DNA of 38,201 bases, from contig DNJG01000077.1 in assembly GCA_003489165.1 (NCBI GenBank), positions 1 to 38,201 of the forward strand. The letters are read 5' to 3'. The DNA comes from Nitrospinota bacterium. Lineage in GTDB: Bacteria > Nitrospinota > Nitrospinia > UBA9942. The notes beneath the pieces were generated by a model. It had not been told where the DNA came from. It saw only the letters and a list, made by a program, of their open reading frames with translations, and ran no database searches. Shown piece after piece: positions 3,665 through 35,825 of this stretch. Position 1 is the first letter of the stretch; each line of letters starts with the position of its first letter. The position numbers and the translations under genes are program-made.

Positions 3665-3683
3665 AAGACCTCCCCTTAAAAGA

Positions 3684-3768
3684 CAGTAGGCAGTAGATAG
3701 TAGGCAGTAAGCAGTAACTCCCCTCTGTCTCTGTTTTCTTTCTACTGCTTACTCCTTACTGCTTACTG
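3684..3768. repeat. Inverted pair of heptamer arrays (CAGTAGG CAGTAGA TAGTAGG CAGTAAG CAGTAAC ... CTACTG CTTACTC CTTACTG CTTACTG)
   Basis: Five units at 3684-3718. The complementary arm at 3742-3768 runs across the ribBA stop codon (3749-3751) into its last codons. Confidence 0.88.
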
Positions 3769-4969
3769 ATGTTATTATGTGCCCCAGCTTTTTCCTCTTT
3801 GTATCAAGATATTTGACATTGTCCTTTTTAGGATGTATCTCTATCGGAACCCTATCTACTATGTGAAGCCCATATCCGTCTAATCCTACAATCTTTCTTG
3901 GATTATTTGTTATTAATCTTAAATTTTTTACTCCGAGGTTTGCAAGTATTTGGGCTCCTATACCATAATCTCTCAAGTCAGGTTTAAAGCCAAGTTCTTC
4001 ATTTGCCTGAACAGTATCTCTCCCCTGGTCTTGTAAGGCATAAGCCTTCAGCTTGTTGACAAGGCCAATGCCCCTCCCCTCCTGATAGAGATATAAGAGG
4101 ATGCCTGTCCCCTCTTTTTCTATCATCTCAAGTGCCTTATGCAGCTGCTCACCGCAGTCGCATCTGTGTGAGCCGAATACATCGCCCGTAAGACACTGTG
4201 AATGAACCCTTACAAGTATATTCTTATCAGGTGTGATTTCTCCTTTTACCAAGGCGAGGTGTATAAAATCGTTCAGTGTATTTTCAAATGCAATTACCTT
4301 AAATTCGCCGTAGTCTGAAGGAAGTTTGGTCTCTGCAGCCCTCTTGACAAAAGACTCTCTTTTCATCCTGTATTCAATGAGGTCTTTTATTGTGATAACC
4401 TTTAAGCCGAACTCCTTTGAAAATTCCATAAGCTGGGGAACTCTTGCCATAGTCCCGTCATCATTCATAATTTCACAGATAACTCCTGCCGGATATAAGC
4501 CTGCAAGCCGTGCCAAATCTACCGAGCCCTCTGTCTGACCGCTTCTAACTAAGACGCCCCCCTCCTTTGACCTGAGAGGGAATATATGCCCAGGGCTTAC
4601 AATATCGTCTTCCCTTGTCTTTGGATTGATTGCTGTAAGTATGGTAGTTGCCCTGTCATGGGCTGATATACCGGTAGTTACTCCATGCCTTGCCTCTATT
4701 GAGATTGTAAATGCAGTCCCAAATCTTGCCTCATTATTTTCAACCATCATAGGAAGATTGAGTGCTGCTACCCTTTCAGGCGTTAGAGAGAGGCATATAA
4801 GCCCCCTCCCATGCTTTGTCATAAAGTTTATTGCCTCCGGAGTGGTCTTTTCGGCAGCAATCATCAGGTCGCCCTCGTTCTCCCTGTCCTCATCATCAAC
4901 GAGGATGATCATCCTGCCTTTTTTAATGTCTTCTACCGCCTCTTCAATTGAATTAAATTTTATATCCAT
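3749..4969 (-). CDS. ribBA: Bifunctional 3,4-dihydroxy-2-butanone-4-phosphate synthase / GTP cyclohydrolase II
   Basis: 406 aa. DHBPS motif [16 protein letters not shown] zinc cluster [18 protein letters not shown] and GRGIGL. The last ~6 codons lie in a heptamer array. Confidence 0.95.
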
Positions 4970-5603: not shown

Positions 5604-5608
5604 AAGAA

Positions 5609-5675
5609 GATTTTAGATTTATGATTTACGAATTACGATTTAAAATCCTAAATCCAAAATCGTAAATCGTAAATT
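5609..5675. repeat. Inverted pair of heptamer arrays (GATTTTA GATTTAT GATTTAC GAATTAC GATTTAA / AAATCCT AAATCCA AAATCGT AAATCGT AAATT)
   Basis: Fills the whole ribD-ribE spacer. The arms abut with almost no loop, and the cores GATTT/AAATC are complementary. Confidence 0.88.
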
Positions 5676-6783
5676 ATTTCAGGTATCCTTCAACAACAAT
5701 ATCATTTCCACACCTATCCACAGTTACATCGCGGATATTCAGAGAATCACTTAGTTTTTCAAAACCCCTTCCACCCACAGCAGGTACACTCTCTTTACCG
5801 CCAATTATTTTTGGTGCAATAAAGAATATTACCTTATCAACTATACCTGACTCTAGTGCGGCAGAATTGAGTTCTGAGCCCCCTTCTATCATTATACTTG
5901 TAATCTCCATTTTGCCCAGTTCTTCCATTAAATTTGGCAGATTAATCCTTTTGTTTTCTTCCTCTATCTCTATAACATTAATCCCTTTTTCTCTCAATAT
6001 ATCTGCCTTTTTTGCATCTGCCTTCTTTGTTGCAGCAATTATGACTTTTGATTTTTGTGCCTTGCGGGAGGCAGATGCAGATTTAATAATATTGGAATCC
6101 ATTGGAATCCTTAACTGGCTGTCAACAATTATACGAATAGGGTTTTTCACATTGCCTCTTTTTAAACTTACTGTGAGATTTGGATTATCCTGTAAGACAG
6201 TCCCTATACCAACCATTACTGCATCTACCTCATCTCTTAAATTGTGGACACGTTCCCTTGAAGGTTCGGATGTTATCCATTTGGATTCTCTTTTACAGGT
6301 TGCAATCTTTCCGTCAAGGCTCATTGCAATCTTTAAGAGGACAAATGGTTTTTTTGATGTGATATATTTTATATATACCTCATTGAGCCTCTTGCATTCT
6401 TTCTCCAATAAGCCTGTAGACACCTGAATCCCCGCTCCATTCAGCTCCTCTATGCCTTTACCTGAGATTATTGGGTTGGGGTCAACCATTCCGATAACAA
6501 TTTTTTTTATTCCGCTCTTTATAATGGTTTTTGTGCATGGGGGAGTTCTACCCTTATGACAGCACGGTTCAAGGGTCACATACATTATTCCGTCTTTTGC
6601 GTTTTTACCTGCCGAATTAATTGCATTGACTTCGGCATGGGGTGTCCCTGCCTTTTTATGGCAGCCTTCCCCGACAATCTTGCCCCCCTTTATAATTACA
6701 GCCCCCACCACAGGGTTGGGGCTTGTTCTCCCCTTTGCTGTCAGGGCTAAATCAATAGCCCTTTTCATATATTTTTCAATCAT
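5674..6783 (-). CDS. ribD: Bifunctional diaminohydroxyphosphoribosylaminopyrimidine deaminase / 5-amino-6-(5-phosphoribosylamino)uracil reductase
   Basis: 369 aa. CDA zinc motifs HAEVNA and PCCHKGRTPPC, with a C-terminal RibD reductase domain (MSLDGKIA..., EGGSELN). Confidence 0.95.
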   Translation of the reverse strand: MIEKYMKRAIDLALTAKGRTSPNPVVGAVIIKGGKIVGEGCHKKAGTPHAEVNAINSAGKNAKDGIMYVTLEPCCHKGRTPPCTKTIIKSGIKKIVIGMVDPNPIISGKGIEELNGAGIQVSTGLLEKECKRLNEVYIKYITSKKPFVLLKIAMSLDGKIATCKRESKWITSEPSRERVHNLRDEVDAVMVGIGTVLQDNPNLTVSLKRGNVKNPIRIIVDSQLRIPMDSNIIKSASASRKAQKSKVIIAATKKADAKKADILREKGINVIEIEEENKRINLPNLMEELGKMEITSIMIEGGSELNSAALESGIVDKVIFFIAPKIIGGKESVPAVGGRGFEKLSDSLNIRDVTVDRCGNDIVVEGYLK

Positions 6784-6805: not shown

Positions 6806-7618
6806 TTAAACAGCTGTTATTGATACCCCATTTTCCTCTGCCATCTTTATCACCTTATCAATGTCCACAACCATAGTCTTTTCTGCCTCTATTGCAAGGG
6901 CGGACACCTTCCCGGCAATTATATTTTCAATTGTTCTTATCCCTATTGTAGGGACATCAAATCTTGGATCCTGTTTCGGTTTTGCTACCTTTACAACAAC
7001 AGCCCCCTCTTTACAAAGACTGCATCCCCTTTTAATTGCCTCATCAGTCCCTTCAATTGCCTCTACTGCCAATATAGCCCTGTCTTTTACAATTACAGTC
7101 TGGCCAATGTCAAGCCCTGCAATCTCTTTCGCAATCTTAAAACCATATTCTATATCACTATTTTCTCTTCTATCAGGTTTATATTTTGTCAGATGCCCTT
7201 TTGAAGGAAATAGTCTTTTTAAGAATGAAATCTGGTCTAAAACCCTCATCCCTTCTTTTTCTAATTCACTTATAATGGCGAGCATGATTGTATCATCATT
7301 TTTATTTTTGATTTTGCTCAAAATCTTTATTGCTTTTAAATCAAATTTCAGATTTTGAAATAAAAGCCTCTTTTCTACCTTCCCAGCCATTGCTATATCC
7401 TTAACCCCTTCATTTTTTAAAGACTTGATTATCTTTCCTGCCTCTCCAACACCATATTGATATACAACTGTTGAAAAGGGTTTGAGTGATTTTGCCGATT
7501 CTTCCGTAAAGGCAATTGAGATTACATTTAGCCCTTTTGAATTTGCCTCATTGGCAAGCAAGACAGGCAGTTCGCCGCTCCCTGCAATCAACCCCAATCT
7601 CTTGATATTGTCTGCCAT
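6806..7618 (-). CDS. lpxI: UDP-2,3-diacylglucosamine pyrophosphatase LpxI (DUF1009 family)
   Basis: 270 aa. LGLIAGSGELP N-terminus and DIGQTVIVKDRAILAVEAIEGTDEAIKRG core, as in LpxI. Sits in a cluster with lpxA. Confidence 0.8.
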   Translation of the reverse strand: MADNIKRLGLIAGSGELPVLLANEANSKGLNVISIAFTEESAKSLKPFSTVVYQYGVGEAGKIIKSLKNEGVKDIAMAGKVEKRLLFQNLKFDLKAIKILSKIKNKNDDTIMLAIISELEKEGMRVLDQISFLKRLFPSKGHLTKYKPDRRENSDIEYGFKIAKEIAGLDIGQTVIVKDRAILAVEAIEGTDEAIKRGCSLCKEGAVVVKVAKPKQDPRFDVPTIGIRTIENIIAGKVSALAIEAEKTMVVDIDKVIKMAEENGVSITAV

Positions 7619-10976: not shown

Positions 10977-11052
10977 GCGGGCGTAGCTCAGTTGGTAGAG
11001 TGTCAGCTTCCCAAGCTGAATGTCGCGGGTTCGAGTCCCGTCGCCCGCTCCA
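10977..11052 (+). tRNA. tRNA-Gly (anticodon CCC), CCA encoded
   Basis: Hand-folded cloverleaf. Acceptor GCGGGCG/CGCCCGC, D arm GCTC-AGTTGGTA-GAGT, anticodon stem TCAGC/GCTGA with loop TTCCCAA, T arm GCGGG-TTCGAGT-CCCGT, then discriminator T and CCA. 76 nt. Confidence 0.93.
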
Positions 11053-11057
11053 AAAAT

Positions 11058-11151
11058 CAGTGAACAGTGACCAGTGCTCAGTACACAGTAAAAAATGAAT
11101 TTTAAATTCTGACTACTGACCACTGATTACTAACTACTGACCACTGTAACT
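11058..11151. repeat. Inverted pair of heptamer arrays (CAGTGAA CAGTGAC CAGTGCT CAGTACA CAGTAAA ... TGACTAC TGACCAC TGATTAC TAACTAC TGACCAC TGTAACT)
   Basis: 5 units at 11058-11092 and 6 units at 11110-11151, ending exactly at the PHP gene ATG. Starts 6 nt after the tRNA-Gly. Confidence 0.9.
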
Positions 11152-19035: not shown

Positions 19036-20172
19036 ATGTTTGAAAAAATAGATTTAATAGTAGAGAGATATAACGAGATTACTGAGTTGATAAGCCGTCC
19101 TGAGATTATCTCAAGGCAGCAGGAATATCTGCGTCTTGTAAAAGAGCATGCAGAGTTATCTGATATTGTAAAAACATATCAGGGATATAAGAAGATAGTT
19201 AAGGAGACACAGGAGAGTGCTGCTCTGTTGAAAGATGAAGTTGATAAGGAATTAAGGGAACTGGTGGCAAGGGAGTTGGCTGAACTTGAGTTGAAAAGGA
19301 GTAAGTTGGAAGATGATTTAAAGATGCTCCTTATTCCAAAAGACCCTAATGATGAGAAGAATATCATTCTTGAGATAAGGGCTGGGACAGGTGGTGAAGA
19401 GGCGGCACTCTTTGCGGCTGACCTGTTTAAAATGTATTCAGCATACGCACAGAAACAAGGATGGAATGTGGATGTAATGAGCAGTAATGTTACAGGAAAG
19501 GGCGGTATTAAAGAGGTAATAGCGATGATAGAAGGCAAAGGGGTTTATAGCAAGCTGAAGTTCGAGAGCGGAATTCATAGGGTTCAGAGGGTTCCCGAGA
19601 CAGAGGCATTAGGTCGGGTGCATACATCTGCCGCAACTGTTGCAATACTCCCTGAGGCTGAGGAGATAGATGTAGTTATAGATATGAAAGATATTAGGGT
19701 TGATGTTTTCAGGTCTGGCGGACATGGCGGGCAGAGTGTAAACACAACCGACTCTGCCGTAAGGGTTACTCATATATCTACAGGAATAGTTGTATCCATG
19801 CAGGATGAAAAATCACAGCACAAAAATAAAGATAAAGCATTTAAGATACTCAGGGCAAGGCTTAAAGAAAGACAGGAAAAAGAGCAGTTTGATGCAAGGG
19901 CACTGGAGAGAAAAACTCAGGTTGGAAGCGGTGACAGGAGTGAGAAGATAAGGACATATAATTTTCCCCAGAATAGGGTTACCGACCATAGAATAGGATT
20001 AACTCTCCATAGACTTGATTCAATTTTAAAAGGTGATTTACAGGAGATAATTGATAAATTGATTATTGCCTACCAGACAGAGGCACTGAATTCAAAAGAG
20101 GATTCAAGGGTTCAAGGAGTCAAGGGATTGAGCGAAAAGAAAAGTCAAACACTTGAACCCTCGATCCCTTGA
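19036..20172 (+). CDS. prfA: Peptide chain release factor 1
   Basis: RF1 P-x-T motif (RVQRVPETE) and GGQ motif ([10 protein letters not shown]). The ATG at 19036 is preferred over the tracked TTG at 19012, which lies inside a repeat arm. The last ~25 codons are encoded by an octamer array. Confidence 0.93.
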
Positions 20173-20184
20173 CCACTTGACCAC
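20102..20184. repeat. Inverted pair of octamer arrays (ATTCAAGG GTTCAAGG AGTCAAGG GATTGAGC ... ACTTGAAC CCTCGATC CCTTGACC ACTTGACC)
   Basis: The left arm encodes the PrfA C-terminal tail. The right arm spans the prfA stop (20170-20172) and the putative prmC start. Confidence 0.88.
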
Positions 20185-21148
20185 TATAATTTTAAGAGAT
20201 ATTCTTAATTGGGCAGCAGAATATCTCAAAAGTCATAATATCCCCTCTGCCCGCCTCGATTCAGAAGTCCTCCTTTCTTTTGTCTTGAATAAAGACCGCA
20301 CATATCTCTACGTAAATTCAGAAACCAGAATACAGAAGTCAGAAGTCAGAAGATTCAAAGAATTTATTGAGAGAAGGGGGATGATGGAGCCTGTAAGCTA
20401 TATTACAGGGGAGAAAGAATTCTGGTCACTCAAATTTAAGGTAACAAAGGATACCCTTATACCAAGACCAGAAACAGAGGTACTCGTTCAGACTGTTCTG
20501 GATATAATCAGAAGCCAGAAGTCAGAAGTCAGAAGTCAGAAGTCAGAAGCATGCCTTGAGCGAAGTCTAAAGGTTAAAAATCTTCAATCTCCAATCTTCA
20601 ATCCCATACGCATCCTTGACATTGGGACAGGTTCTGGAAATATTGCAGTTAGTATTGCAAAAGAGAGCCCGGAGTCTCATGTTTTTACAGTAGATAAGTC
20701 AGATAGTGCATTATCTGTTGCAAAGGAAAATGCAATAATTCATAATGTAGCAGGAAGGATTATCTTCTTAAAGGGTGATTTATATATTCCATTTAATCCT
20801 CCTGGCCCCCTTTTCATAAAGGAGGGTAAGGAGAGATTATTTGATATTATTGTATCAAATCCGCCTTATATACCAACATGTGATATAGAGGGATTAATGC
20901 CTGAGGTAAGGGACTGGGAGCCGAGATGGGCTCTTGACGGCGGAAAAGACGGATTGGAGATTATACAGAAAATAATAAAAGATGCGCCACTGTTCTTGGA
21001 ATCAGGTGGTTTTATAGCAATGGAGATAGGTTTTGGTCAGTATGAGGAGGTATCTCGTATTATTTCAGACATAGATAAATTTCATAATATAAAAACGATA
21101 AAAGATTTATCAGGGATTGAAAGGGTTGTTACTGCATGGAAAAGATAA
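20153..21148 (+). CDS. prmC: Release-factor glutamine N5-methyltransferase PrmC (HemK)
   Basis: SAM motif ILDIGTGSG and catalytic VSNPPYI. The start is uncertain: no ATG, only TTG candidates at 20153 and 20177, both inside a repeat arm. Contains in-frame heptamer arrays. Confidence 0.88.
20319..20353 (+). repeat. In-frame heptamer array in the prmC N-terminal domain (CAGAAAC CAGAATA CAGAAGT CAGAAGT CAGAAGA)
   Basis: Read directly. Encodes [12 protein letters not shown]. Confidence 0.85.
20509..20601 (+). repeat. In-frame composite element in prmC: CAGAAGC (CAGAAGT)x4 CAGAAGC, a 30-nt spacer, then TCTTCAA TCTCCAA TCTTCAA
   Basis: Six units at 20509-20550 and three units at 20581-20601. Encodes [31 protein letters not shown] immediately before the SAM-binding ILDIGTGSG motif. 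Confidence 0.9.
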
Positions 21149-24441: not shown

Positions 24442-24566
24442 CCAAACACCAATACTAATCACCAAATAAACTCCAATTACCAATAATCAAAAGGTTATAT
24501 GTTTGGTTATTGGTGATTGAATCATTGGTTATTATTTGGCTTTTGTGATTTGGGTATTGGTTATTA
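24441..24566. repeat. Inverted pair of heptamer arrays (ACCAAAC ACCAATA CTAATC ACCAAAT ... CAATAAT / GTTTGGT TATTGGT GATTGA ... TGGGTAT TGGTTAT)
   Basis: Fills the hisD-hisC spacer. The cores ACCAA/TTGGT are complementary. Confidence 0.88.
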
Positions 24567-24575
24567 TTTTGAGTT

Positions 24576-25634
24576 ATGATTGACATCAAAAGTTTTGTAA
24601 AAAAAGAGGTCAAGGAGCTCAAGCCCTATCACATAGAGAATACCCCATGCAGAATCAAGCTTGATGCAATGGAGAATCCTTATCCTCTGTCTGAGGCTCT
24701 GATGAAAAAGGTTGTGGAAGGTATTAAGGGGATAAAGATAAACCGCTATCCCGACCCTCTTGCATCAAGACTTAAAGACATTATCTCATTGCATGTTAAA
24801 ACTCCTGTAGACAATATAATAATAGGAAATGGTTCTGACGAACTCATTCAGTTAATTCTGACTGCATTTGGAGGGCATGGGGATAGGGTTCTTTTACCAA
24901 TTCCCACATTTTCTATGTATGGGATTATTGCAATGTCTCTGTCCCTTATGCCTGAAGGTGTCTCTTTGGGTAAGAATTGGGCACTTCCGTTGGACAAATT
25001 CTTATCCAATATGGAGAGAATTAAACCGAAGGTTATTTTTATCAGCTATCCAAACAATCCTACAGGAAACTCATTTGATAAAGAATCAATTTTAAAGGTA
25101 TTGGAAAAAACGACTGGCATTGTTGTAATAGATGAAGCATATTATGATTTTTCAAGGAAGACATTTTTGCCATATCTGAAAGAGTGTAAGAATTTAATCA
25201 TTTTAAGGACTCTTTCAAAAATAGGAATGGCAGGCTTGAGGGTTGGATATTTGATGGCGGATAAGGAGATTTGCCAAGAGCTAAATAAGGTTAGGCTTCC
25301 ATATAATTCCAATGCTCTTTCACAGGAGATATCAAGTATAATTTTAGAGAACAGAACAGAAATTCAAAAACAGATAGGAGCTATTATATCGGAAAGAGAT
25401 AAGCTTATGGAGGGGCTTAAAGAAATTGAGGGTATTGAACCATATCCTTCAGAGACAAACTTTATCCTGTTTAAAGTAGATAGAAACAGCAAAGAGGTCT
25501 TTGATAGATTATCAGACAATGGTATACTTATCAGAAATTTTGGCAATGACAATTATCTGAAAGATTGCTTGAGGGTTACAATAGGCACTCCGGAAGAGAA
25601 TAATGAATTTTTAGATACAATAAGAAAATTATAG
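24576..25634 (+). CDS. hisC: Histidinol-phosphate aminotransferase
   Basis: 352 aa. Motifs NENPYP, YPNNPTG and the PLP-lysine motif TLSKIGMAGLRVGY. Confidence 0.95.
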   Translation: MIDIKSFVKKEVKELKPYHIENTPCRIKLDAMENPYPLSEALMKKVVEGIKGIKINRYPDPLASRLKDIISLHVKTPVDNIIIGNGSDELIQLILTAFGGHGDRVLLPIPTFSMYGIIAMSLSLMPEGVSLGKNWALPLDKFLSNMERIKPKVIFISYPNNPTGNSFDKESILKVLEKTTGIVVIDEAYYDFSRKTFLPYLKECKNLIILRTLSKIGMAGLRVGYLMADKEICQELNKVRLPYNSNALSQEISSIILENRTEIQKQIGAIISERDKLMEGLKEIEGIEPYPSETNFILFKVDRNSKEVFDRLSDNGILIRNFGNDNYLKDCLRVTIGTPEENNEFLDTIRKL

Positions 25635-25648
25635 CATAGGAGGACAAA

Positions 25649-26236
25649 ATGGAGAGGAAGGCTGAGGTTAAAAGAAAGACGAAAGAGACAGATATTAGCG
25701 TTTGTTTAAAATTAAATGGCAGGGGTGAATATAAGGTAAATACTGCTGTCCCATTTTTAGACCACATGCTTTCTCAGATTGCAAAGCATGGTCTTTTTGA
25801 TATGGAGATTAATGCAAAGGGTGATACGGATGTAGATTTTCATCACACTGTTGAAGATGTAGGGATAGCACTCGGAGATGCATTTAAGAAAGCACTTGGA
25901 GAAAAGGTGGGTATAAAAAGATATGGGCACGCAGTGATACCTTTGAATGAAGCGCTCTCAATGGTTTCAGTGGATATAAGCGGGAGACCATTTATTGTCT
26001 ATAATGTCAAGATGCCAAAAGAAAAGGTTGGAGAATTTGATGTAGAGTTGACAGAGGAATTTTTCAGGGCATTTGCAAATAGCAGCGGTATGAGTCTGCA
26101 TATAAATATGATATATGGGAATAATCTCCACCATATAATTGAATCAATCTTCAAAGCAGCAGCAAGGGCATTAGATGAGGCCACCTCCTTAGATGAAAGA
26201 GTAAAGGGGATACCCTCTACGAAGGGAAAACTGTAA
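25649..26236 (+). CDS. hisB: Imidazoleglycerol-phosphate dehydratase
   Basis: 195 aa. Motifs [24 protein letters not shown] and NLHHIIES. Confidence 0.97.
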
Positions 26237-26243
26237 AAGCAGG

Positions 26244-26310
26244 GGTTAGGGATTAGGGGATAGGGGTTAGTAAAAAAACTAATCCCAAGTCCCTAACTCC
26301 AAGTCCCTAA
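26244..26310. repeat. Inverted pair of heptamer arrays (GGTTAGG GATTAGG GGATAGG GGTTAGT ... ACTAATC CCAAGTC CCTAACT CCAAGTC CCTAA)
   Basis: hisB-hisH spacer. The G-rich arm also satisfies a G-quadruplex motif (see findings). Confidence 0.88.
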
Positions 26311-26314
26311 TTCT

Positions 26315-26986
26315 ATGATTGCAATAATAGACTACGGAATGGGTAATTTGAGGAGTGTCCAGAAGGGGTTTGAGAGGGTTGGACATGAAGCTGTTGTAAC
26401 AAATAATCCCCAAGAGATACTTTCTGCTGATGGAGTTGTCTTGCCCGGTGTTGGTGCATTTAAAGACTGCATGAGGAATTTAGAAAATGGCAGATTGATT
26501 GATACTGTATATAAGGTTATAGAAAATGGTAAACCCTTCCTTGGCATCTGTCTTGGTCTTCAGCTTTTGTTCACAGAAAGTGAGGAATTTGGTATTCATA
26601 AAGGTTTGGATATTGTTAAGGGTAGAGTTGTAAAATTCTCTTTTAATACTCCGAACTCCGAACTCCAAACTCCGAACTTTAAAGTTCCCCACATGGGATG
26701 GAATAGCATAAAAAAGAGTGGTCAGTGGTCAGTGGTCAGTGGTCAGAAAAACCAATTTTCATCTATTTATGAAGGGATACCTGACAACTCCTTTTTTTAT
26801 TTTGTCCATTCCTATTATGTAATACCGGAAGATGATGATGTTATAGCATCCACGACTGACTATGGGGTTGAGTTTGTTTCAAGCATCTATAAGGATAATA
26901 TCTTCGCCTGCCAGTTTCATCCCGAGAAGAGTCAGGAAGCCGGCTTAAAGTTGCTAAAGAATTTTGGAGATTTTTGTAAATGTTAA
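26315..26986 (+). CDS. hisH: Imidazole glycerol phosphate synthase, glutamine amidotransferase subunit
   Basis: 223 aa. Motifs IAIIDYGMGN, nucleophile elbow GICLGLQLL, VPHMGWN and QFHPEKS. Two in-frame heptamer arrays flank VPHMGWN. Confidence 0.95.
   Translation: MIAIIDYGMGNLRSVQKGFERVGHEAVVTNNPQEILSADGVVLPGVGAFKDCMRNLENGRLIDTVYKVIENGKPFLGICLGLQLLFTESEEFGIHKGLDIVKGRVVKFSFNTPNSELQTPNFKVPHMGWNSIKKSGQWSVVSGQKNQFSSIYEGIPDNSFFYFVHSYYVIPEDDDVIASTTDYGVEFVSSIYKDNIFACQFHPEKSQEAGLKLLKNFGDFCKC
26648..26678 (+). repeat. In-frame heptamer array in hisH (ACTCCGA ACTCCGA ACTCCAA ACTCCGA ACT)
   Basis: Read directly. Encodes TPNSELQTPN just before the conserved KVPHMGWN. Confidence 0.92.
26718..26746 (+). 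repeat. In-frame perfect heptamer array in hisH (GTGGTCA x4 + G)
   Basis: Read directly. Encodes SGQWSVVSGQ just after the conserved VPHMGWN. Confidence 0.92.
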
Positions 26987-27767: not shown

Positions 27768-28601
27768 ATGCTTACACGAAGAATAATCCCCTGTCTTGAT
27801 GTAAAGGATGGCAGGGTTGTAAAAGGGGTTAAATTTTTAAATTTAAGGGATGCAGGGGACCCTGTTGATGTTGCTGAGATTTATGACAGGGAAGGGGCAG
27901 ACGAGATTACATTTCTTGATATTACAGCCTCACATGAAAACAGAAATATTATTATTGATGTAGTTTATAGGACAGCAGAAAGGGTCTTCATGCCACTTAC
28001 AGTTGGCGGTGGCATAAGGACACTTGATGATATAAGAAATTTATTGAAGGCAGGTGCGGATAAGGTTTCAGTAAATACCGCAGCAGTTAAAGACCCTGAA
28101 TTTGTAAAGAGGGCATCTGAAAGATTTGGTAGTCAGTGCATTGTGGTGGCAATAGATGCGAAAAAAATACAGAAGACAGGAGACAGAAGACAGAAGGCAG
28201 AAAAAAAAGAAAATTTAAACTCCGAACTCCGAACTCCGAACTCCGAACTTTTAAGGTGGGAGGTTTTTACACACGGGGGTCGTAATCCTACAGGACTTGA
28301 TGCAGTGGAGTGGTCTCAAAGGATGGAAGAGTATGGTGCAGGAGAGATACTCCTTACAAGTATGGATAGAGACGGGACGAAAGAGGGATATGATATTGAA
28401 TTGACAAAAAACATATCAGAGACAGTCGGTATCCCTGTTATAGCATCAGGAGGGGCTGGCAATCTACAGCATCTTTATGAGGGATTTATGGAAGGGAAGG
28501 CAGATGCCGTCCTTGCCGCATCTATATTTCATTATCGTGAATATACAATTAAAGAGGCAAAAGAGTTTTTAAGAGGGAAAGGGGTTAATGTAAGGTTATA
28601 A
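27768..28601 (+). CDS. hisF: Imidazole glycerol phosphate synthase, cyclase subunit
   Basis: 277 aa. Motifs [33 protein letters not shown] and ASGGAG. It is longer than I recall for typical HisF (~250 aa) because of an internal double heptamer array. Confidence 0.95.
28170..28249 (+). repeat. In-frame double array in hisF: CAGAAGA CAGGAGA CAGAAGA CAGAAGG CAGAAAA, an A-rich spacer, then (ACTCCGA)x4 ACT
   Basis: Arrays at 28170-28204 and 28219-28249. Encode [27 protein letters not shown] between the conserved VVAIDAK and W.VFTHGG segments. Confidence 0.92.
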
Positions 28602-29255
28602 ATGGACATAAAAAATCTAAAATACGACAGTAACGGTTTAATACCAGCAATTATTCAAGACTGGAAGAATGGTGATGTGTTGATGCATGCCTATATGAAT
28701 GAGGAGTCATTAAAGAAGACTATTGAAACTGGCTATACCCATTTCTGGAGCAGGTCAAGGGGAAAGCTCTGGAAAAAAGGGGAGACATCCGGAAATGAGC
28801 AGATTGTCAAAGAAATAAACTATGACTGTGATAATGATACATTACTTGTAAAAGCAGAGCAAAAGGGTGTTGCCTGCCATACAGGTAATAGGACATGCTT
28901 TTTCGGTAAGTTATTTGAAAGTCCGAAATCCGAAGTCCGAAGTCCGAAGTCCGAACTAATTGACAAGATATATGAGGTAATTCTGGACAGGAAAAGAAAT
29001 ATGAGAGAAGGTTCCTATGTATCTTCACTATTTAAAAAAGGCAGAGATAAGATACTTAAAAAGATAGGAGAAGAGGCATCAGAGGTAGTGATAGGTTCTA
29101 AGAATGACAAGAAAGAAGAAATTATCTACGAGATAGCAGACCTCTGGTTTCACTCCCTTGTTTTGTTGGGGTATCATGATATAACCCCTGAAGATATTTA
29201 TAAAGAATTACAAAAAAGATTCGGCAAGTCAGGAATTAGAGATGAGAAAAAATAG
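28602..29255 (+). CDS. hisI: Bifunctional phosphoribosyl-AMP cyclohydrolase / phosphoribosyl-ATP pyrophosphatase
   Basis: 217 aa. HisI part ([26 protein letters not shown]) and HisE part ([19 protein letters not shown]). A heptamer array lies in the inter-domain linker. Confidence 0.95.
28921..28955 (+). repeat. In-frame heptamer array in hisIE (GTCCGAA ATCCGAA GTCCGAA GTCCGAA GTCCGAA)
   Basis: Read directly. Encodes [12 protein letters not shown] at the HisI/HisE domain junction. Confidence 0.92.
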
Positions 29256-35447: not shown

Positions 35448-35825
35448 ATGAAACTCATCTTCGTCTGTGTAGAAAACTCCTGCAGAAGTCAGATAGCTGA
35501 GGGGTTTGCGAGGTATTATGGCAAGGAAATCTCAGTTTACAGTGCAGGCTCAAGATCGACAGGTATTGTTAATCCAATGGCAGTTGATATAATGAAGGAA
35601 AGAGGAATTGATATCTCAAACCAAGAATCTAAAGGATTAGATGCATTACCAAAAGATAAATTTGATATTATAGTTACAATGGGATGTGGTGATAACTGTC
35701 CGACAGTTTCTGCAAAGAAGAGGATAGAGTGGCAGATTAAAGACCCAAAAGGTGCTTCCATAGAGGTATTCAGGGAAGTCAGAGACGAGATAGAGGAGAA
35801 GGTTTTGGAGTTATTGAGGAAGTAG
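35448..35825 (+). CDS. arsC: Arsenate reductase / LMW-PTP-fold phosphatase (thioredoxin-coupled ArsC type)
   Basis: 125 aa. P-loop FVCVENSCRSQIAEG (C-X5-R-S), a downstream Cys pair (MGCGDNCP) and DP (IKDPKG). The fold assignment is confident; substrate assignment is less so. Confidence 0.65.
   Translation: MKLIFVCVENSCRSQIAEGFARYYGKEISVYSAGSRSTGIVNPMAVDIMKERGIDISNQESKGLDALPKDKFDIIVTMGCGDNCPTVSAKKRIEWQIKDPKGASIEVFREVRDEIEEKVLELLRK

Follow-up and report, generated by a model that had tools for sequence, protein, structure and literature searches.

Two in-frame heptanucleotide repeat arrays in hisH of an uncultured groundwater bacterium, probably simple-sequence repeats expanded in place and filtered by the reading frame

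Heptanucleotide repeats are over-represented in bacteria, and a slippage hypothesis has been advanced to account for them (PMC4679880, PMC4692102). The prokaryote survey of Mrazek and co-workers (2007), as summarised in those two papers, found long simple-sequence repeats with a 7-nt unit to be over-represented and proposed polymerase slippage with a 7-nt footprint. The STRR of the heterocystous cyanobacteria Calothrix, Nostoc and Anabaena, together with the G-rich GGGGA(T/C)T and GGGAATC repeats of Nostoc and Xanthomonas (PMC4692102), have a 7-nt unit in few copies (mode near four), occupy many loci per genome with period 7 alone over-represented, include some inverted stem-loop pairs, and vary in length between related strains; the published arrays are described as intergenic and under-represented in coding regions. 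In marine Beggiatoaceae and certain cyanobacteria, the TAACTGA direct repeats (PMC4679880) have 2–6 copies of one dominant unit and are abundant in one lineage; because this unit contains forward stop codons, which constrain its orientation when it overlaps an ORF, the arrays are almost all intergenic and lie upstream of start codons. A non-triplet repeat within an ORF, with copy-number changes between strains, is characteristic of phase-variable loci in Haemophilus and Neisseria (PMC2651432, PMC3315296).

The arrays described here were found in hisH and at other loci of the window, i.e., the whole stretch of 38,201 nt (38 kb) that was analysed, and each of the systems above is matched in part. 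As in the Mrazek survey, period 7 stands out, whereas here, in contrast to what the available summaries of that survey describe, the non-triplet unit persists in genes through three-unit steps. Unit size, copy number, multiplicity of loci, the enrichment of period 7 alone, the occurrence of some stem-loop pairs and length differences between related strains are shared with the STRR and the Nostoc/Xanthomonas repeats, and the AGGGGTT and AGGGATT units of the window resemble the GGGGATT of Nostoc; however, 10 of the 19 window arrays are translated inside housekeeping enzymes, and the host is neither a cyanobacterium nor a xanthomonad. Low copy number, abundance in one lineage and the constraint imposed by stop codons are shared with the TAACTGA repeats, but the window contains many units, and they are translated. 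Unlike the phase-variable loci, the present arrays showed no frameshifting variant, reside in core enzymes and are stable across strains that are 98–100% identical. The STRR2 unit, TTGGTCA, is similar to the GTGGTCA found here. Elhai and co-workers (2008) reportedly described small dispersed repeats lodged inside the tandem heptamer arrays of Nostoc, to which the short palindromic inserts that interrupt hisH arrays in two relatives (L087 and L089) may be likened; neither array of the window has such an insert. The repeat strings and peptides of hisH were not found in the literature searched.

The two arrays lie in the hisH gene of an intact hisG-D-C-B-H-A-F-IE operon, at the following positions:

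26315..26986, + strand: hisH, whose 223-aa product is the glutaminase subunit of imidazole glycerol phosphate synthase (ORF, TIGR01855 and PDB matches); both arrays lie inside it
26648..26678, + strand: site-1 array, ACTCCGA x4.4 (TRF period 7, 91% matches), encoding TPNSELQTPN(F), residues T112–N121
26681..26704, + strand: KVPHMGWN motif between the arrays, residues 123–130 (conservation in alignment A1, alignment with 1gpw_B)
26717..26746, + strand: site-2 array, AGTGGTC (GTGGTCA) x4.3 (TRF period 7, 100% matches), encoding SGQWSVVSGQ, residues S135–Q144

The original prediction of two in-frame heptamer arrays around KVPHMGWN was borne out by direct reading of the ORF and by TRF, both arrays being head-to-tail repetitions of a 7-nt unit in at least three copies. 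The sole variant base of the site-1 array is a G-to-A change at 26667, which makes its third unit ACTCCAA, and the motif lies one residue past the first array and four residues ahead of the second. The frame was also predicted to be kept, and the 223-aa ORF indeed scored 225.6 bits against TIGR01855 (cut-off 105.4) and matched PDB entries with E-values down to 3e-36; the best Foldseek matches of its predicted model were the HisH structures 4gud, 7ac8 and 1kxj (target-normalised TM-score 0.82–0.86). Residues C79, H202 and E204 pair with the catalytic residues of 1gpw_B, forming the Cys-His-Glu triad of class-I amidotransferases, and neither they nor the PGVG strand varied across A1, an alignment of HisH relatives. 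Within KVPHMGWN, K123, H126, G128, W129 and N130 were invariant and P125 and M127 almost invariant in A1. In a residue-by-residue alignment with 1gpw_B, W129 corresponds to W123 of Thermotoga maritima HisH, a residue known to contact HisF in the 1GPW literature. On these sequence comparisons, HisH carrying both arrays looks functional; indirect support for activity with the inserts in place comes from the survival of both alleles in natural populations and from the intact operon.

An assembly artefact was ruled out, since the window array sequence recurs in no fewer than 10 assemblies made independently from different samples, and the hisH arrays (30–31 nt) are far shorter than the k127/k141 k-mers suggested by the contig names. 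The sample names of the assemblies point to the groundwater metagenomes PRJNA268031 and PRJNA292723, and the window protein was also located on a contig of 155 kb.

Alignment with orthologues, proposed as a check on whether the arrays are true insertions, upheld that view: gaps lie opposite both arrays in the solved HisH structures 4gud, 1ka9 and 1gpw, and close relatives in A1 have no array or other arrays, the peptides at the two sites being very dissimilar or lacking. The predicted insertion size of about 10 aa, however, did not hold, each array being exactly 7 aa (21 nt, three units) longer than the one-unit alleles that share its flanks; the extra units encode TPNSELQ at site 1 (aligned as 26648–26668) and WSVVSGQ at site 2. 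Similarly, the assumption that HisH is normally short at both positions held for site 2 but not for site 1. Among 80 diverse HisH, the N130–Y162 span around site 2 measures 20 aa in 77 (31 in the window), whereas the V105–P125 span around site 1 ranges from 9 to 34 aa with modes of 11 and 16 (19 in the window); site 1 is thus length-variable in HisH at large, and site 2 only in this clade. In an AF2 model of HisH with an overall pLDDT of 83, both arrays fall in low-confidence coil (pLDDT 48–64 at residues 111–150), and values below 50 occur only at residues 112–118, which are the heptapeptide absent from the short allele. The location of the arrays in surface loops is thus a prediction that rests on predicted coil and low pLDDT.

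The origin of the insertions is most directly indicated by natural alleles. Relatives were retrieved through exact-protein look-ups; a scan of a genome collection gave a best identity of 66% among the matches listed. At site 2, relative L091 (...AAAAAGAGTGGTCAGAAAAACCAATTT) has one unit with the same immediate flanks as the window, which is longer by 21 nt, and L088 also has one unit. At site 1, L092 has one unit between flanks that align codon for codon with the window, again 21 nt longer, and the one-unit allele was also present in L213, L214 and L215. The array-less orthologues L085 and L091 (FSFSTQGLKIP) have the same length at site 1 as the one-unit state, which indicates that the array arose by amplification and is not an inserted element. 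L213 is 99.98% identical to the window over 4749 nt, differing by one SNP and the loss of 21 nt in the site-1 array. Within the 90% cluster to which the window HisH belongs, four proteins (P0122, P0125, P0127 and P0130) lack exactly TPNSELQ, and the short site-1 allele was also seen in sequence backgrounds sharing 99.4% and 94.7% identity with the window. Copy number therefore differs between related strains, both at site 1 (four units versus one at 99.98% identity) and at site 2 (window versus L091). The annotated full-length hisH genes examined contain only alleles differing by three units (21 nt, 7 aa); no intermediate with two or three units was seen among sequences retrieved by protein, a procedure that would miss frameshifted alleles. 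Hypervariability was ruled out by 10 strains at 98–100% identity to the window, none of which showed a further length change in any array, and the four-unit site-1 array is kept in relatives down to about 77% identity.

These arrays are probably simple-sequence repeats with a heptanucleotide unit, like the STRR of cyanobacteria, expanded in place by slippage or recombination, filtered by the reading frame and carried as near-neutral passengers in permissive loops. A resident single heptamer (ACTCCGA at site 1, GTGGTCA at site 2) would have been amplified to four tandem copies; as the 7-nt unit shifts the frame, only three-unit steps (21 nt, 7 aa) would leave HisH intact, and the extra seven residues would be tolerated in two loops around the PHMGWN strand. 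In genes, only in-frame arrays free of stop codons and placed in loops and linkers would persist; in non-coding DNA the arrays form complementary pairs that fold into hairpins. The hisH arrays would then be a local expression of a propensity, shared across the lineage, to form period-7 arrays. Candidates for the underlying process are slippage during replication, unequal recombination and ectopic conversion from one array to another; which way each copy-number change went, like near-neutrality at the protein level, we infer rather than observe. Simple slippage does not account for the first step from one unit to four, since misalignment presupposes two or more copies, and the stability of the arrays among the 10 strains most like the window also weighs against the proposed explanation.

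The window as a whole contains 19 period-7 arrays, compared with 0.1 in dinucleotide-preserving shuffles under one scoring scheme, which excludes chance as their source. Other periods from 3 to 13 gave 0–4 arrays each, none enriched, and period 14, the double period, gave 13; over-representation of period 7 at many loci is thus seen here as in the known heptanucleotide repeat class. The window has 0.5 arrays per kb, and loci of 5–7 kb from relatives have 0.15–1.1 per kb; in 464 kb surrounding hisH in 80 other species, the figure is 0.05 per kb. Ten of the 19 arrays lie entirely within genes (hisH, hisF, hisIE, prmC and others), in frame inside ORFs, so that the mainly intergenic distribution of the STRR, Xanthomonas/Nostoc and Beggiatoaceae repeats does not apply. 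The non-coding 10% of the window nonetheless holds 6–9 of the 19 arrays, a several-fold enrichment per base, as expected if selection acts against arrays in genes. One intergenic pair adjoins hisH:

26241..26310, + strand: hisB-hisH spacer, AGGGGTT-type array and complementary TAATCCC/AAGTCCC array, forming a hairpin (RNA fold, array listing)

The predicted hairpin has a folding energy of -35.8 kcal/mol (z = -5.75), and none of 200 shuffles was equally stable. Each intergenic pair has its own unit sequence. The statement that the two hisH arrays are not complementary to each other, unlike the intergenic pairs, was confirmed: the fold of 26640–26755 showed no pairing between them (z = +1.16 versus shuffles), whereas the intergenic complementary pairs fold with z = -5.8, -5.8 and -2.9. 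An Rfam scan of the whole window returned one tRNA (10977–11049) only.

Arrays also occur in two other genes of the histidine pathway, making five in-gene arrays across hisH, hisF and hisIE:

28166..28249, + strand: hisF composite in-frame insertion, AAGACAG x5 (28166–28202), an A-rich spacer and AACTCCG x4.6 (28218–28249)
28919..28955, + strand: hisIE in-frame array, AAGTCCG x5.3, in the linker that joins the PRA-CH and PRA-PH enzyme domains (array listing)

The second hisF unit, AACTCCG, is the site-1 unit of hisH, so that AACTCCG (or AAGTCCG) is found in all three genes. HisF residues 135–163 are unmatched in HisF structures, different units stand at the corresponding place of hisF in relatives, and no RNA pairing was detected between the two hisF arrays (z = +0.66). 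In HisIE, Pfam places PRA-CH at residues 28–101 and PRA-PH at residues 122–206; in-gene arrays other than those of hisH, for example these of hisF and hisIE, lie in linkers and loops. In L087, AACTCCG x4 falls at coordinates within the called hisIE gene (5873–6514), and in L081 and L215 GTGGTCA occurs beside AACTCCG in hisF; the peptides NSELRTP and SGQWSVV are likewise found in HisF and HisIE. A metagenome scan identified at least 120 contigs with (AACTCCG)x4, with GC contents from 33% to 71%, many of the arrays being within long ORFs, and in other lineages the AACTCCG arrays of ORFs have both orientations. A special, widely transferred AACTCCG unit was ruled out, since permuted heptamers were about as common in IMG/VR (15 for AACTCCG versus 14 and 7; 66 for GTGGTCA); this breadth therefore reflects heptamer arrays generally. 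The recurrence of both units elsewhere in the operon is not predicted by random in-place amplification.

The arrays are much better conserved at the nucleotide level than the rest of the gene that contains them: among four taxa, 1 of 10 third positions varies within the arrays, compared with 57% elsewhere in hisH (P = 0.003; P = 0.01 was also obtained). It is puzzling that the arrays remain nucleotide-perfect while adjacent synonymous sites diverge. Sequence carried purely as a neutral passenger would decay, so the proposed explanation has to be supplemented by homogenisation, recurrent re-expansion or selection at the nucleotide level; the comparison points to homogenisation or DNA-level selection. 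A stronger version, which we regard as unlikely, is an active process with a 7-nt ruler that builds and homogenises arrays, copies them between loci, makes the complementary spacer pairs and writes 7-aa loop segments by three-unit steps; if it exists, the lineage would possess a built-in generator of loop insertions in essential enzymes, not repeat noise.

The same conservation, together with the presence of AACTCCG or AAGTCCG in three consecutive his genes and the co-occurrence of GTGGTCA and AACTCCG in hisF of relatives, would also be consistent with a nucleotide-level role in the his transcript, the arrays serving as single-strand or RNA-binding sites or as recombination or replication signals and the peptides being a by-product; heptamer direct repeats have been discussed as possible binding sites of cold-shock-type proteins (PMC4679880). 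This alternative is improbable, as the site-1 array is dispensable in an otherwise identical strain, orthologues have unrelated units or none at these sites, no RNA structure was detected, and AACTCCG is neither fixed in orientation in other ORFs nor commoner than permuted heptamers. The conservation itself is also explained by homogenisation through repeated contraction and re-expansion.

Selection on the 7-aa insertions themselves, by which they would tune HisH-HisF docking or allostery or serve as a peptide tag shared by His enzymes, appears very doubtful. The arrays do flank the invariant PHMGWN strand with its W123-equivalent Trp, expansion of the otherwise fixed-length site 2 is unusual, NSELRTP and SGQWSVV are common to HisF and HisIE, and the four-unit site 1 is retained across considerable divergence (about 77% identity). 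Against this, alleles with and without TPNSELQ coexist in otherwise identical strains, the peptides of close relatives are very different or absent at both sites, and the model predicts disorder for the inserts, whose pLDDT is the lowest of the protein; moreover, each peptide is one heptamer read in three frames, with no visible structural motif.

The architecture of a non-triplet unit within an ORF is that of classical phase-variable genes (PMC3315296, PMC2651432), and five such arrays are concentrated in three genes of one pathway, so single-unit slippage might switch hisH (and hisF and hisIE) off and on and render histidine prototrophy phase-variable. We give this little credence: the sole length variant is an in-frame loss of three units (-21 nt), within a full-length-protein retrieval biased against frameshifted alleles, the unchanged arrays of the 10 further strains argue against hypermutability on that timescale, and the host genes serve housekeeping biosynthesis instead of surface structures or restriction-modification. 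An A_AAA_AAG run directly 5′ of the second array (26710–26716) looks like a -1 frameshift site; no structure was found downstream, and the -1 frame stops after about 20 codons.

That a tiny mobile or templated element, like miniature inverted repeats or small dispersed repeats, inserted heptamer cassettes at many sites, genes included, is hardly credible and for the two window arrays largely refuted by the +21 nt relation; one-unit and array-less alleles of equal length are impossible for an inserted cassette. Identical units do occur at several loci, TTTAA-like sequence lies on both sides of the AACTCCG arrays of hisH site 1 and hisF, and the palindromic insert of L089 resembles copies in L152, L127 and L087, but in about 150 AACTCCG arrays, drawn from many lineages, the flanks are unrelated, which rejects a cassette with conserved ends, each intergenic pair has a unit of its own, and of the genes annotated none close to the arrays looked like a transposase.

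Non-triplet repeats are usually held to be poisonous to essential genes, since single-unit slippage destroys the frame. In this lineage five such arrays lie in a core amino-acid pathway and persist across relatives 15–25% divergent in residues. At hisH, a one-unit allele, a four-unit allele and a near-clonal polymorphism were all observed, which supports the view that simple-sequence expansion can give rise to new 7-aa stretches of protein, and even a loop of otherwise fixed length (site 2) can take up such an insertion. For annotation, arrays of this kind explain odd low-complexity inserts in metagenomic proteins of many lineages. The nearest named relatives of this HisH, at 71–75% identity, are labelled Nitrospinota or Nitrospinae, and the window host is an uncultured groundwater bacterium of low GC content (38%).

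The hisH gene of the window encodes a protein that scores 225.6 bits against the equivalog model TIGR01855 (cut-off 105.4) and matches HisH proteins of solved structure with E-values down to 3e-36. In the surrounding his operon, hisIE was confirmed by Pfam and hisA and hisF by NCBIfam, and the full gene order, taken from precomputed Pfam hits to near-identical contigs, is hisG, hisD, hisC, hisB, hisH, hisA, hisF, hisIE. The nearest named relatives are labelled Nitrospinota/Nitrospinae, and the sample names point to groundwater metagenomes (PRJNA268031 and PRJNA292723). Frame reading and Tandem Repeats Finder confirmed the coordinates, units, peptides and intact frame that the original prediction had assigned to two heptamer arrays within hisH:

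26315-26986, plus strand: hisH, open reading frame of 223 amino acids
26648-26678: site 1, ACTCCGA x4.4, 91% matches
26717-26746: site 2, AGTGGTC x4.3, 100% matches

Site 1, in which a G-to-A change at 26667 is the sole deviation, is read as T112-PNSELQTPN-121, followed by F122 and K123-VPHMGWN-130, and site 2 follows SIKK and is read as S135-GQWSVVSGQ-144. When a single scoring scheme was applied to periods 3-14, the window was found to contain 19 period-7 arrays, against 0.1 in dinucleotide-preserving shuffles; the other periods from 3 to 13 yielded 0-4 arrays each, and period 14, the double period, yielded 13. The hisH-region sequence is unchanged in ten contigs encoding an identical HisH protein, which were assembled independently from different groundwater samples and share 98.2-100% identity with the window across 5-20 kb. 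The contig names suggest assembly k-mers far longer than the hisH arrays, and together these findings exclude an assembly artefact.

Aligned with the window protein, the HisH structures 4gud, 1ka9 and 1gpw show gaps at the positions of both arrays. In hisH translated from 80 species of a genome collection (51-66% identity), the span equivalent to N130-Y162 comprises 20 residues in 77 species, compared with 31 in the window, and the V105-P125 span ranges from 9 to 34 residues, with modes at 11 and 16 (19 in the window). Site 2 thus lies in a connection of normally fixed length, and site 1 in a loop that varies across the family, so that the prediction of only a few residues at both positions in other HisH proteins held for site 2 and failed for site 1. 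The proposed ortholog alignment also showed that, among relatives with 70-87% identity, HisH length varies at these two sites only. Comparison of the DNA of ten such relatives identified the following alleles:

Site 2, L091: AGCATAAAAAAGAGTGGTCAGAAAAACCAATTTTCA, one unit
Site 2, window: as L091 but with four copies of AGTGGTC, +21 nt, +WSVVSGQ
Site 1, L092: TTTGATACTCCGAATTTGAAG (FSFDTPNLKIP), one unit
Site 1, window: four units, +21 nt
Site 1, L085 and L091: FSFSTQGLKIP, no array, same length as the one-unit state

The 21-nt difference from the one-unit alleles, and the equal length of the array-less and one-unit states, indicate that each array most probably arose where it stands, by amplification of a heptamer native to the gene from one copy to four; an origin from foreign DNA is ruled out by the comparison with L091, L092 and L085. 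The original interpretation of two insertions of about 10 amino acids is accordingly upheld as to insertion and revised as to size, to 7 amino acids at each site.

Site 1 is also polymorphic between near-identical strains. Exactly TPNSELQ is missing from four of the 12 members (P0122, P0125, P0127 and P0130) of the 90%-identity cluster of the window HisH, and P0122 is otherwise the window protein. Over 4749 aligned bases, the contig L213 differs from the window by one mismatch and one indel, the loss of ACTCCGAACTCCGAACTCCAA, and the same short allele is present on L214 (99.4% identical to the window) and L215 (94.7%). Since the more distant relatives L081, L083 and L090 carry four units at site 1, and one unit inside the window array is a variant, the change would be most economically read as a recent one-step contraction from four units to one in L213. 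Long and short alleles both persist in nature, and the seven residues are therefore dispensable; a function at the protein level is considered a minor alternative. No other change of array length, in genes or spacers, was detected in ten strains at 98-100% identity, and the arrays are unstable on a moderate timescale only and not hypermutable; phase variation is likewise a minor alternative.

In the HisH alignment, C79, H202 and E204, which align with the catalytic residues of Thermotoga maritima HisH, are invariant, as are the PGVG strand, H126, G128, W129, N130 and Y162, and P125 and M127 are nearly so. An AlphaFold2 model of the window HisH, generated from a 34-sequence alignment, has a mean pLDDT of 83 and a pTM of 0.84, and its target-normalised TM-scores against the HisH structures 4gud, 7ac8, 1kxj and 1gpw are 0.77-0.86. 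Mapping of the arrays, as had been suggested, places both inside residues 111-150, to which the collapse in pLDDT is confined (10-residue block means 48, 64, 59 and 58) and which are modelled as coil except for a short strand, 128-132, carrying GWN. Residues 112-118 form the single segment with pLDDT below 50 and are the exact heptapeptide absent from the short allele; these predictions support the arrays as tolerated loop inserts.

Ten of the 19 window arrays lie fully within ORFs and in frame, three touch the end of an ORF, and the other six are intergenic. Arrays within ORFs are found in prmC (three), hisH (two), hisF (two) and hisIE (one), with one each near the 3′ end of a lumazine-binding-domain gene (Pfam Lum_binding) and near the 5′ end of a metallophosphoesterase gene. 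The window is 90% coding, and its non-coding tenth is enriched several-fold in arrays, as expected under selection against in-gene arrays. The window has 0.5 arrays per kb, compared with 0.15-1.1 per kb in 5-7 kb loci of relatives and 0.05 per kb around hisH of the 80 other species. The release-factor methyltransferase gene prmC (20153-21148) contains in-frame arrays at 20319-20352, 20509-20549 and 20579-20603; CAGAAGT is the unit of two of them, with up to 5.9 copies, and AATCTTC is the other unit. A 26-amino-acid composite insert in hisF (28146-28280), with no counterpart in solved HisF structures, consists of AAGACAG x5 followed by AACTCCG x4.6; in L081 (4807-4926) and L215 (1923-2042), GTGGTCA x4 takes the place of the first array, directly before AACTCCG x4, which gives HisF the same SGQWSVVSGQ and 11-letter peptides as the window HisH, and still other units occupy this position in L087, L088 and L090. 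The hisIE array is as follows:

28919-28955: AAGTCCG x5.3, in frame, located precisely in the linker that joins the PRA-CH and PRA-PH domains

One unit family, AACTCCG or, with one mismatch, AAGTCCG, is thus shared by hisH, hisF and hisIE, three consecutive his genes; in L087, AACTCCG x4 (6190-6217) has coordinates within the called hisIE gene. A period-32 tandem repeat (24493-24569; 2.3 copies, 80% matches) occupies the hisD-hisC spacer just 5′ of the hisC start at 24576.

The intergenic arrays form adjacent complementary pairs, each with its own unit (26241-26310, 11058-11146, 3681-3768 and 5608-5674), and folding was performed for the first three. Strong hairpins, scored as z relative to shuffled sequences, are predicted in the 78-nt hisB-hisH spacer (26236-26315, z = -5.75) and directly after the tRNA gene at 10977-11049 (11050-11150, z = -5.76), and a further strong hairpin on the minus strand at 3675-3775 (z = -2.86). 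In contrast, RNA folding detected no pairing between the hisH arrays (z = +1.16), in agreement with their predicted lack of complementarity, or between the hisF arrays (z = +0.66). Relatives also have complementary pairs inside genes and in frame, as in hisF of L087 (z = -5.7) and at hisH site 2 of L083, (GGGGTCA)n...(GAACCCT)n (z = -1.7). Rfam identified no known RNA family at the arrays. Directly 5′ of site 2, A_AAA_AAG (26710-26716) is placed in the zero frame as a classical -1 slippery site would be; no downstream structure follows, a stop closes the -1 frame after about 20 codons, and the run is probably a Lys-Lys coincidence of an A-rich genome.

Plain neutral slippage leaves several features unexplained, namely array conservation, recurring units, seeding and absent intermediates. 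Outside the array, 57% of the third codon positions of hisH vary among the window, L081, L083 and L090, compared with 1 of 10 in the site-1 array (binomial P = 0.003); between the window and L081, 1 of 20 varies across both arrays (P = 0.01). Any one of three processes would account for this conservation: homogenisation as arrays contract and re-expand, ectopic conversion, or selection at the DNA or RNA level. A function at the nucleotide level is regarded as a minor alternative. A one-copy heptamer cannot slip, so that either the first expansion needs another mechanism or every one-unit allele has arisen by contraction. Alleles of two or three units were not seen, although retrieval through full-length proteins would miss them. 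Delivery by a mobile element, also a minor alternative, is opposed by the 21-nt relation and by the unrelated flanks of about 150 AACTCCG arrays, which share no common sequence. A metagenome scan for (AACTCCG)x4 recovered at least 120 contigs with GC contents from 33% to 71%, many of the arrays lying within long ORFs and read as NSELRTP or SSEFGVR. AACTCCG as a special, widely transferred unit was rejected, because two permuted heptamers are about equally frequent in IMG/VR (14 and 7, against 15), and its wide spread is a general property of heptamer arrays. (GTGGTCA)x3 is 4-9 times commoner in IMG/VR viral contigs (L254, L255, L260 and L269 among others) than these three heptamers (66); some of the contigs have as many as six such arrays within 10 kb, a pattern suggesting that certain lineages or phages strongly favour this unit.

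STRR sequences constitute a lineage-specific family in heterocystous cyanobacteria. Heptanucleotides are over-represented in bacteria, for which slippage over a 7-nt polymerase footprint has been proposed (PMC4679880, PMC4692102); the GGGAATC repeats of Xanthomonas and GGGGA(T/C)T repeats of Nostoc prefer four units, occasionally form inverted pairs and are rarer in coding regions (PMC4692102), and a TAACTGA family is found in Beggiatoaceae (PMC4679880). The present arrays resemble these families in unit size, copy number, multiplicity, period specificity and strain polymorphism, but are frequently translated within core enzymes, change by three-unit steps and belong to an uncultured low-GC groundwater bacterium. 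The hisH arrays are a known sort of heptamer repeat and not a new kind of system; these repeat strings and peptides were not found in the literature examined. We consider it likely that heptanucleotide simple-sequence repeats would expand and contract in place, that the reading frame would filter which changes survive in genes, that inserts would be tolerated in permissive loops and that some form of homogenisation would keep the arrays perfect. Of moderate interest are the clean series of one-unit and four-unit alleles and the number of non-triplet repeats that an essential operon carries.

In relatives, hisH arrays are broken, with the frame kept, by short palindromic inserts (L087, 3341-3368 and 3447-3471; L089, 3441-3468), which resemble small dispersed repeats nested within heptamer arrays; copies similar to the L089 insert, CCCCCTCAATCCCCCTTTATTAAGGGGG, with up to four mismatches, are present in L127, L087 and L152, the last with three hits at two loci (4413-4440 and 7246-7273). 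Away from the arrays, a 20-nt deletion in hisF of L214 (window 28420-28439) splits the gene into 230 and 37 amino acids and could be a true pseudogene or an assembly error. L323 (98.2% identical to the window) has in-frame insertions of 27 and 30 nt, without heptamer arrays, at window positions 35527 and 36235, in an LMWPc phosphatase gene and a BacA-family gene, indicating that in-frame indel polymorphism extends beyond the arrays.
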